A stretch of DNA of 10,734 nt from a virus, in UHGV virus genome UHGV-1689382. One strand, given 5' to 3'. Made by a program: the position numbers and the translations under genes. Shown one piece after another: positions 5,797 through 6,808 of this stretch (its first letter is position 1; each line of letters starts with the position of its first letter). Under the pieces are notes generated by a model. It was given only the letters and a program-made list of their open reading frames with translations. It searched no databases and was not told the origin of the DNA.

Positions 5797-6213
5797 ATGA
5801 AAAAACTAACCTTTGAAATTCGATCTCCAGCACATCAGCAAAACGCTATTCACGCAGTACAGCAAATCCTTCCAGACCCAACCAAACCAATCGTAGTAAC
5901 CATTCAGGAACGCAACCGCAGCATTCGGCAAAATGCACGCCTTCACGCGATGCTATCTGAAATAAGTAAGAAGGCTACATATCATGGAAAAGCAAGAAAT
6001 ATTGAGTTTTGGAAGGGGTTATTCGTTTCTGGTTGGCAGATTGCAACCAACCAGCACCCTGAGATTATATCAGGGTTAGAAGGTGAGCTAATAAACATCA
6101 GAGAGAGTACGGCGACTCTATCTGTAAAAAAAATATCCGAAATAATGGACTACATAGAAGCATATTGTGCCATGAACTCAATTCATCTTAGCGAATGGAG
6201 GAATTATGATTGA
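5797..6213 (+). CDS. ninB: NinB recombination protein (mosaic allele)
   Basis: The first about 42 residues, MKKLTFEIRSPAHQQNAIHAVQQILPDPTKPIVVTIQERNRS, match lambda NinB from memory. The rest is recognisably NinB-like but strongly diverged and AT-rich. SD GGGGGAGAGGG upstream; start taken at Met7 of the ORF-track frame. Confidence 0.85.
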   Translation: MKKLTFEIRSPAHQQNAIHAVQQILPDPTKPIVVTIQERNRSIRQNARLHAMLSEISKKATYHGKARNIEFWKGLFVSGWQIATNQHPEIISGLEGELINIRESTATLSVKKISEIMDYIEAYCAMNSIHLSEWRNYD

Positions 6214-6808
6214 GGTTTGGGTAGATATCGAAGGAATTCCATTTTATCAGGTTAGCAATAAAGGAAATTTCAGGTCTATTACGAGGGAAGTTACAGTAAC
6301 ATCAACCAGACAGAGGCCATATAAGAAAATAATTAATGGCACTAGCGTAAAACCATTCAAGTGCAAGTCGACAGGATATCTTCAAATAAAGGTATACGGT
6401 AAGAAATACAGCGCCCACAGGATAGTTGCGAAAGCATTCTGTACAGGGTTCTGTGATGGCTTGGTAGTTAATCACAAAAATGGGCAAAGAGATGACAATA
6501 GGGCTGAAAACCTTGAATGGGTATCACATTCTGAAAACTCAAAGCACGGATATAAACAAAATGGAAGAATACCTATATCGCTAGGTAAATTTAGTGGTGA
6601 TCATCCTGCCAGTAAAGCTGTTATTTCTACTGACATGAAAACTGGGGAGGAGGTTTATTATGAAGCAGCTATGGATGCTGTCAGAGAAGGATTTGATAGT
6701 TCGTCAATTAGTCGTTGCTGTAATGGCGAAAGCTCATATCACAAAGGAAGATTCTGGCGATTTGCAAATGAAAAAATGAAATCGCGATGGGGAGACAGGG
6801 CGGCATGA
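6206..6808 (+). CDS. HNH homing endonuclease (NUMOD4-like N-terminus + HNH_3-type nuclease motif)
   Basis: N-terminus [21 protein letters not shown] is NUMOD4-like; the HNH core is HRIVAKAF...[29 protein letters not shown]. Strong SD GGAGGAA (6197..6203). Start overlaps the ninB stop and stop overlaps the ninD start. Visibly lower GC than its flanks. Confidence 0.8.

Follow-up and report, generated by a model that had tools for sequence, protein, structure and literature searches.

Here, we describe a putative free-standing homing-endonuclease cassette that a lambdoid prophage carries in its ninB (orf) gene. It is located in a stretch of 10,734 nucleotides from the UHGV virus genome UHGV-1689382, called the window below, which represents the early-right region of the prophage. 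As judged by comparison with lambda and with a syntenic prophage, a foreign AT-rich block has replaced codons 43-137 of a lambda-type ninB and has brought in codons 43-138 of a divergent ninB lineage (termed ninB') together with a gene for an HNH-type endonuclease. By the same comparison, the join at the right end is in frame and keeps the old stop/start overlap and the ribosome-binding site for ninE, the next gene. A first-pass annotation of this DNA had already proposed that a divergent ninB segment plus an endonuclease gene replaced the middle and 3' part of ninB, and the alignments described here bear this out. We estimate a probability of roughly 60% that the region is indeed a homing-endonuclease cassette.

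The left part of the gene is that of lambda. From 5720 to 5922, which covers the end of ren, the ren-ninB spacer and the first 42 codons of ninB, 202 of 203 nucleotides are identical to lambda NC_001416 in a blastn comparison. After 5922 the similarity stops abruptly and blastn gave no match to NC_001416 across the foreign block, in line with the earlier statement that NinB follows lambda for about 42 residues and then diverges. The low GC content that had been noticed between about 5930 and 6780 was confirmed by a windowed analysis. The interval 5923-6777 has a GC fraction of 0.388 compared to a window mean of 0.467 and to 0.524 in the matching part of lambda ninB, and it is the minimum among all 855-bp windows of the 10.7 kb. 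The change of lineage occurs at a patch of 12 nt, CGCAACCGCAGC, that encodes ..RNRS; outside it canonical ninB and ninB' share no sizeable stretch. In the region of this patch a native ninB' reads AAGCAGCGCAACCGCAGCATTCGG and lambda reads CAGGAACGCAACCGCAGCCTGGAC. This native ninB' is present on the IMG/VR contig L092, where the AT-rich gene is complete and has its own N-terminus, MKCVKYHLTNESIRYNAIQYLRTCDLDIIVEFKQRNRS...

Judged by its profile matches, the hybrid NinB that arose by the left join inside this shared patch is intact. The reading frame is a full-length match to Pfam PF05772 (E 1e-40, profile positions 2-129 of 131), also belongs to PHROG 72 (NinB/Orf), and retains the invariant R/Q/N/G/W/K columns of the NinB family. 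The gene should be viewed as a full-length hybrid and not as a disrupted ninB, which corrects the earlier picture. The C-terminus of the hybrid protein, ..HLSEWRNYD, is 11 residues shorter than that of lambda Orf after the GVKW position. The C-terminal alpha-5 helix of lambda Orf (W137, W141), which contributes to DNA binding (PMC4118853), is not present, and the canonical segment K138-A146 is now attached to the HNH protein instead of NinB. A truncation of ninB by the insertion was considered and ruled out on the basis of the full-length Pfam match and of HNH-less ninB' relatives with C-termini of similar length. Since more distant NinB relatives that lack the HNH gene have C-termini as short as that of ninB', the short end is a trait of the lineage.

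The gene that follows encodes a putative NUMOD4-HNH_3 endonuclease related to I-HmuI, as had been predicted. The 200 aa product matches Pfam NUMOD4 (E 1e-13, 51 bits with a cut-off of 23.4) and HNH_3 (E 8e-12, residues 69-112), and a match to the I-HmuI NUMOD-like profile is below the cut-off (19.3 vs 27). In a phmmer search residues 55-186 aligned to residues 36-170 of the 174-residue I-HmuI chain (PDB 1U3E chain M, E 4e-14), the only relative with a solved structure. The PADLOC model 'homing endonuclease' covers residues 5-191 (E 1e-26). H90, N102 and N111 of the HNH motif are invariant across 38 diverse homologs. In a set of 503 HNH homologs the conserved core ends with ..SISRCCxGxxxxHKGxxWRF and is variable thereafter. 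Most copies have an intact reading frame with high conservation (281 sequences in one cluster), and public records label such genes 'HNH endonuclease' or 'NUMOD4 domain-containing protein'. As described before, the start overlaps the ninB stop; the overlap is 8 nt long (ATGATTGA, 6206-6213). The stop overlaps the start of the following gene by 4 nt (ATGA). That it does so as a ninB stop would was correct, and only the name of the downstream gene has to be changed from ninD to ninE, as identified by its Pfam match (Table 1).

The last nine residues of the endonuclease are derived from lambda-type ninB and are fused to it in frame. A resemblance to the end of lambda NinB (..EWKARWGDRAA) had been noted before, and blastn now gives 28 identities in 31 nt between 6778-6808 and the end of lambda ninB, with the ATGA stop/start overlap included. 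Compared with the commonest canonical ninB-ninE allele the tail of the window has a single difference (GCG>TCG). The I-HmuI, PHROG and PADLOC matches all stop at residue 186-191, ahead of the tail, and the closest HNH homologs outside E. coli (76-79% identity) end with ..RFADERMAA and have no KARWGD. From AAAGCGCGATGG.. on, the 3' ends of HNH genes equal those of canonical ninB. Silent polymorphisms in the last codons follow the downstream gene in both kinds of allele, with GCG next to ninE and GCT next to ninC and dam. Thus, the early end of the profile matches, the lack of the tail in the nearest homologs, the canonical DNA and the polymorphisms that track the neighbor together argue for ninB as the source, and the earlier proposal of ancestral final codons fused in frame agrees with this. 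The tail pattern was found in 120 IMG/VR loci, where it ends a canonical lambda-type ninB in 115 and an HNH gene in 4. The next gene is ninE in 86 of these loci, ninC in 26, ninD in 4, dam in 2 and not classified in 2. Canonical ninB abuts ninE, as the HNH gene does in the window, in 82 of the 120; in lambda itself the ninB stop overlaps ninC. The remnant in the window also carries the Shine-Dalgarno sequence for ninE. A plain AATG microhomology was tried as an explanation for the right junction and rejected: AATG is shared, but the observed join is one G short of a join mediated by it. In the IMG/VR contig L239 (IMGVR_UViG_2718217715_000011), about 30 nt upstream of ninE, a ninB tail (ATGAAAGCGCGATGGGGAGACAGGGCGGCATGA) is joined to unrelated sequence at the same ninB position as in the HNH gene. 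The foreign side reads as the antisense of another gene, and this is a separate rearrangement that ends at the same point in ninB.

An empty site is found in a prophage of E. coli EC-07 (L368), which has the gene order of the window from O to Q. Here a canonical ninB of 146 aa abuts ninE, the flanks are 96-100% identical to the window (98-100% for the left arm 5720-5922), and the difference between ninB and ninE is confined to 5923-6778. The foreign block of 856 bp stands in place of 285 nt, the canonical ninB codons 43-137. Elsewhere in the same comparison, identity falls to 56-78% at 7000-7300 and 7500-7900 of the window, with 96-100% in the surroundings. These stretches correspond to ninX and to the N-terminal (Rha-like) half of the antirepressor gene and are further mosaic joints, one of them intragenic.

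The cassette arrangement is not ancestral, as judged by its distribution among 5426 complete E. coli genomes. The foreign ninB part (query 5925-6215) was found in 77 of them, always with at least 99% identity, and the NUMOD4 gene follows the ninB' 3' part in 77 of 77. The flanking sequences are present in about 2240 genomes, which include these 77. An ancestral arrangement without a shift in composition, one way in which the first-pass proposal could have failed, is therefore not what we see. The downstream gene of the cassette is dam in P27-type Stx phages, ninC in the Lederbergvirus APC_JM3.2 (MG197996), and ninE or ninD in lambda-like prophages; the upstream neighbors vary too. Common to all contexts is the block from the start of ninB to the stop of the tail, in which the foreign cassette has a left arm of 126 nt and a right arm of 30 nt, both of canonical ninB. 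Beyond E. coli, the cassette has relatives in L130 (79% identity) and in the Yersinia-type L108. In IMG/VR an HNH gene follows all close ninB' relatives (at least 63% identity), which come from Yersinia-, Serratia- and Mixta-type phages.

Some copies are decaying, as seen from an interrupted HNH gene and from frameshifts in ninB'. In L106/L303 (IMGVR_UViG_2713896798_000010) the NUMOD4-HNH gene is broken after about 47 codons by an insertion of about 1.1 kb, and ninB' is frameshifted in L103/L317 and L318. Further endonuclease genes occur in the neighborhood. The closest cassette-bearing relative, a prophage of E. coli ETEC1720 (NZ_CP122859.1, L369:2503-3114), has another annotated HNH gene of 203 aa between dnaB and ninB that is absent from the window. 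Some prophages with the cassette have, between ninF and the genes near rusA, a different and shorter NUMOD4-HNH gene (169 aa; L003:2928-3437 and L085:4375-4884), and hence the nin region can house several endonuclease genes.

Of all the observations, the reciprocal mosaics tell the most. In L092 (IMGVR_UViG_2751185961_000005) codons 1-33 of lambda-type ninB are fused in frame to an endonuclease with HNH_3 and AP2 domains (1512-2102). This is followed by the complete ninB', the NUMOD4-HNH gene, the canonical tail and ninE. A prophage of E. coli AVS0578 (NZ_CP124374.1, L370:1501-2088) carries the same fusion of a codon 1-33 remnant to the HNH_3 and AP2 endonuclease. Its ninB consists of ninB' codons 1-38 and canonical codons 43-146, with the switch at the RNRS patch, and ninC is next. 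PGAP labels the codon 1-33 remnant as a partial 'HNH endonuclease' pseudogene. Four states can thus be distinguished among E. coli prophages and IMG/VR contigs: canonical ninB in many prophages, the ninB' 3' half with the HNH gene in 77 E. coli genomes, the second HNH gene with the ninB' 5' half in 8 E. coli genomes, and both endonucleases around a full ninB' in one IMG/VR contig (L092). As these alignments show, an endonuclease gene lies on either side of ninB'. The two are unrelated to each other, and each is fused to what remains of the canonical gene that was displaced. Either endonuclease can travel on its own with the half of ninB' next to it, and the window is the right-hand half-state.

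The coordinates of the cassette and of the other genes of the window are collected in Table 1. Scans for tRNA genes and Rfam families gave no matches in the window. Downstream of the Q-like gene, at 9530-10110, lies a region of about 580 nt without a reading frame of more than 75 aa, in which GC reaches 0.565. It likewise has no tRNA or Rfam match, and the lambda Q-S region is matched only from about 10107 on.

Table 1. Cassette features and gene order of the window
Feature	Position	Strand	Remarks
Lambda-type left arm	5720-5922	+	spacer upstream of ninB and ninB codons 1-42 (5797-5922)
ninB (orf), hybrid	5797-6213	+	138 aa; codons 1-42 lambda-type, codons 43-138 from the divergent AT-rich lineage (ninB')
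Left crossover patch	5911-5922	+	shared 12 nt
Foreign AT-rich cassette	5923-6778	+	ninB' codons 43-138 and HNH codons 1-191
HNH gene	6206-6808	+	200 aa; free-standing NUMOD4-HNH (I-HmuI-like)
ninB remnant	6779-6808	+	codons K138-A146 and stop, in frame as HNH residues 192-200
ninE	6805-6981	+	right-flank gene; Pfam NinE E 4e-43; 97% nucleotide identity to lambda ninE (6812-6978, blastn)
cI		-	first in the gene order
cro/cII-like genes			after cI
O	3529-4350
dnaB-type helicase	4347-5723
ninX, ninF, Ant/Rha antirepressor, ybcO, rusA, ninH, Q-like gene			in this order 3' of ninE

The association of the HNH gene with ninB is not restricted to E. coli. We surveyed the clade by profile searches of loci from IMG/VR and GTDB genomes. 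Of 36 loci outside E. coli with HNH homologs of at least 195 bits, about 30 have the HNH gene directly behind a NinB gene; for more distant NUMOD4-HNH genes this is the case in 4 of 119 loci. The ninB-linked loci come from enterics, Pseudomonas, Aeromonas, Camelimonas and others. Several members carry a longer in-frame NinB remnant and have in addition a complete, short-tailed NinB upstream. The homologs end with ..AFGTQRGVEWSPTSLGRAA in L284, ..FGTEHGVKWADEAKAA in L286 and ..SDASRLEIEWATRWGKS in L287, with in-frame remnants of the NinB C-terminus of 19, 16 and 17 aa, respectively, and the end in L124, ..ERGVVWSDRARQEIVDDWESA, is NinB-like as well. When the tails were tested by shuffling, 19 of 115 matched the C-terminal 32 residues of lambda NinB (p<=0.01). 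A NinB-like end, ..AIEWASRFGDKQRAAA, is also seen in L315, in an HNH-AP2 gene that lies behind a relative of ninB'. The junctions fall between NinB residues of about 118 and 138, and this spread suggests independent joins in the 3' end of ninB. In L120 (..DRHGVRWSEPNPYEVTA) and L124, both from IMG/VR, HNH homologs with NinB-like tails lie after a DUF1367 gene or an unknown 144-aa gene and not after ninB; the upstream ninB may have been replaced, or else the endonuclease has moved and taken the remnant along. These upstream genes were also considered as cryptic NinB homologs, and hhalign found nothing in support of this (probability 0.2%).

How could such a cassette spread? We infer homing with co-conversion. 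The endonuclease would nick or cut the 3' part of canonical ninB in co-resident or co-infecting lambdoid phages. Repair off the cassette-bearing genome would then copy the HNH gene together with the ninB' segment, which is presumably resistant to cleavage, and the two short canonical arms of 126 nt and 30 nt would supply the homology. Arms of such lengths are workable for Red-type recombination, as used in recombineering. This scheme would account for the finding that P22-like, lambda-like and Stx phages have one and the same cassette (with an identity of at least 97-99%) in front of ninE, dam, ninC or ninD. The reciprocal mosaics of L370 and L092 and the clade-wide linkage to ninB strengthen this explanation.

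Several points weigh against it. The case for homing is built on sequence patterns. Of the E. coli genomes that have the region, only about 3% contain the cassette, which is hence not sweeping. Both junctions are identical in all E. coli copies, which is compatible with a cassette that arose once and was then passed on as a module by ordinary homologous exchange. A gradient of co-conversion tract lengths was not seen among the E. coli copies, a result that is uninformative, since the arms are identical to the canonical ninB of the recipients. The copies in Stx phages are about 97% identical to the window, and thus the element is not very recent. The right arm has just 30 nt. Enzymes of the I-HmuI type are nickases, and this makes the route of repair uncertain. 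Finally, 5-6 related loci have a DUF1367 gene or an unknown gene, and not ninB, ahead of the HNH gene.

The most serious alternative, which we nevertheless hold to be unlikely, is ordinary lambdoid mosaicism with the endonuclease as a passive passenger. Here ninB' and the HNH gene were joined once to a lambda-type ninB, by a short-homology join on the left and an illegitimate join on the right, and were then shuffled by general or Red-type recombination in the flanks; the endonuclease would have no role and would perhaps be inert or decaying. The uniform junctions in E. coli do imply one founding event, the low frequency fits as well, and frameshifted or interrupted HNH copies are known (P0004-6, L103 and L106). 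The nin region is moreover notoriously mosaic, and ninX and the N-terminal half of ant also switch between L368 and the window. However, a passenger without a role is difficult to reconcile with the conservation of the reading frame in the 281-member cluster and of the HNH residues in the 38 homologs. It also leaves unexplained that the HNH clade is tied to ninB in enterics, Pseudomonas, Aeromonas and others, with independent remnants of varied length, and that a second, unrelated HNH gene with a mirror-image remnant lies on the other side of ninB'. Passive shuffling would not lead one to expect an endonuclease gene at each boundary.

We think it improbable that the HNH gene is kept for a benefit to the phage, either as a partner of NinB' in recombination or replication or as a weapon that degrades competing lambdoid genomes in interference competition or marker exclusion. 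The linkage to ninB would then reflect function and not selfish homing. Such a role could be read from the tight operonic coupling by the 8-nt overlap with ninB' and the ATGA overlap with ninE, from the adjacency to NinB across the clade, from the match to the PADLOC model, and from HNH-domain fusions that have been reported for Orf-family proteins (PMC4118853). However, the HNH partner is missing beside most NinB genes, the same HNH clade is also found after unrelated DUF1367 genes, and remnant tails and AT-rich composition point to invasion rather than to a co-evolved operon. A phage that excludes its competitors would, at any rate, do so by the same cleavage and repair that homing uses. Least credible is a tail KSRWGDRAA that is native to the endonuclease family or has arisen by chance or convergence under the constraint of the downstream ribosome-binding site and ATGA: ..AA and an ATGA overlap are indeed frequent at the ends of family members, the closest homologs have ERMAA there, and the final two codons by themselves might be shared or convergent, but the alignments refute this for the whole tail, with 30 consecutive nucleotides identical or nearly so to canonical ninB ends, KARWGD missing from the homologs of 76-79% identity, a conserved core and all profile and structure matches that end before it, and longer NinB pieces in other members (AFGTQRGVEWS.., FGTEHGVKWADEA..; shuffle p<=0.002).

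A broader and more tentative idea can also be put forward. It is possible, although we regard it as doubtful, that ninB/orf is a dedicated, clade-wide homing site, with the NUMOD4-HNH lineage and at least one HNH-AP2 lineage specialized on its two ends in phages of many proteobacteria. Each invasion of a new ninB lineage would leave behind an in-frame remnant of the victim gene. This remnant would serve as a homology arm of 30-130 nt, a size suited to Red/Orf-type recombination, and it would also keep the nin genes downstream translationally coupled. A 'mini HEG island' (HEG, homing endonuclease gene) with two endonucleases would then have three recombinant states, represented by the window, L370 and L092.

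The relation of the HNH product to I-HmuI and I-HmuII from the Bacillus phages SPO1 and SP82 is one of direct sequence homology. Both have an N-terminal DNA-binding part and the HNH_3 motif, and both are phage-borne and associated with a gene of DNA metabolism. The C-terminal NUMOD/HTH-like part of I-HmuI has a candidate counterpart in the window protein, where the profile match is below the cut-off and the phmmer alignment extends to chain residue 170 of 174. In contrast to I-HmuI, which is located inside a group I intron of a DNA polymerase gene, the window gene is free-standing and translationally coupled between ninB and ninE. It has nine extra residues from the host gene, and its activity is a sequence-based prediction. 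The genomic arrangement is closer to intronless homing by the Seg and Mob endonucleases of T-even phages (SegG/gene 32, MobE/nrdB). As there, the endonuclease gene lies beside a conserved gene, alleles without it exist in syntenic genomes (here L368), the linked flank of the target gene is divergent and always co-inherited, and the element is sporadic among relatives. Unlike Seg and Mob, the family is NUMOD4-HNH and not GIY-YIG, the host is a temperate lambdoid phage, the reading frame is fused to a remnant of the target gene, and cleavage and co-conversion are putative here.

Homing endonuclease genes at recombination boundaries have been described, and so have 'HEG islands' (Barth, Dunham & Seed 2023, PMC10448857). 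In the case described here the endonuclease genes also lie exactly at the boundaries of the exchanged segments, and in L092 two of them bracket ninB'. There are, however, differences. HEG islands comprise more than 10 kb of high identity, and the phages that have them are lytic and ICP1- or T4-like. In L092 the endonuclease genes enclose one gene of 0.4 kb, the phages are temperate, and each half of ninB' can travel alone with its own endonuclease (window vs L370). A further parallel, and the one earlier case of this kind of fusion in a P22-like phage, is gene 31 of epsilon34, which joins what is left of a resident gene in frame to a putative HNH homing endonuclease (PMC2629481). This is likewise an in-frame fusion in a lambdoid phage. 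That locus is, however, eaE in the early left operon and the HNH lineage is a different one. Epsilon34 gene 31 contains an N-terminal remnant, as the second endonuclease does in L370 and L092, whereas the window has a C-terminal one. Full-text literature searches found no description of a ninB-specific HNH association, of the remnant tails or of the reciprocal mosaics; one Orf-family paper marks 'HNH' boxes near orf in a gene-order figure only.

The kind of element described here, a free-standing homing endonuclease with linked flanking sequence, is well known, and our example is clear but not unprecedented. What it adds is a description, exact to the base, of one mosaic joint in the well-studied nin region of lambdoid phages, in which the joint is tied to endonuclease genes instead of anonymous illegitimate recombination. 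There are also consequences for annotation. These 'NUMOD4 domain-containing proteins' end in nine residues that come from ninB, the 'partial HNH endonuclease' pseudogenes upstream of some ninB genes are N-terminal ninB remnants fused to an endonuclease, and a hybrid NinB without the lambda-type alpha-5 helix is common in Stx phages. The proposed mechanism is open to direct test by lambda genetics, and the cassette is a clean and tractable example in lambda-like phages. Should ninB indeed be a dedicated homing site, it would offer a model, based on lambda and amenable to genetics, for how free-standing endonucleases home in temperate phages.

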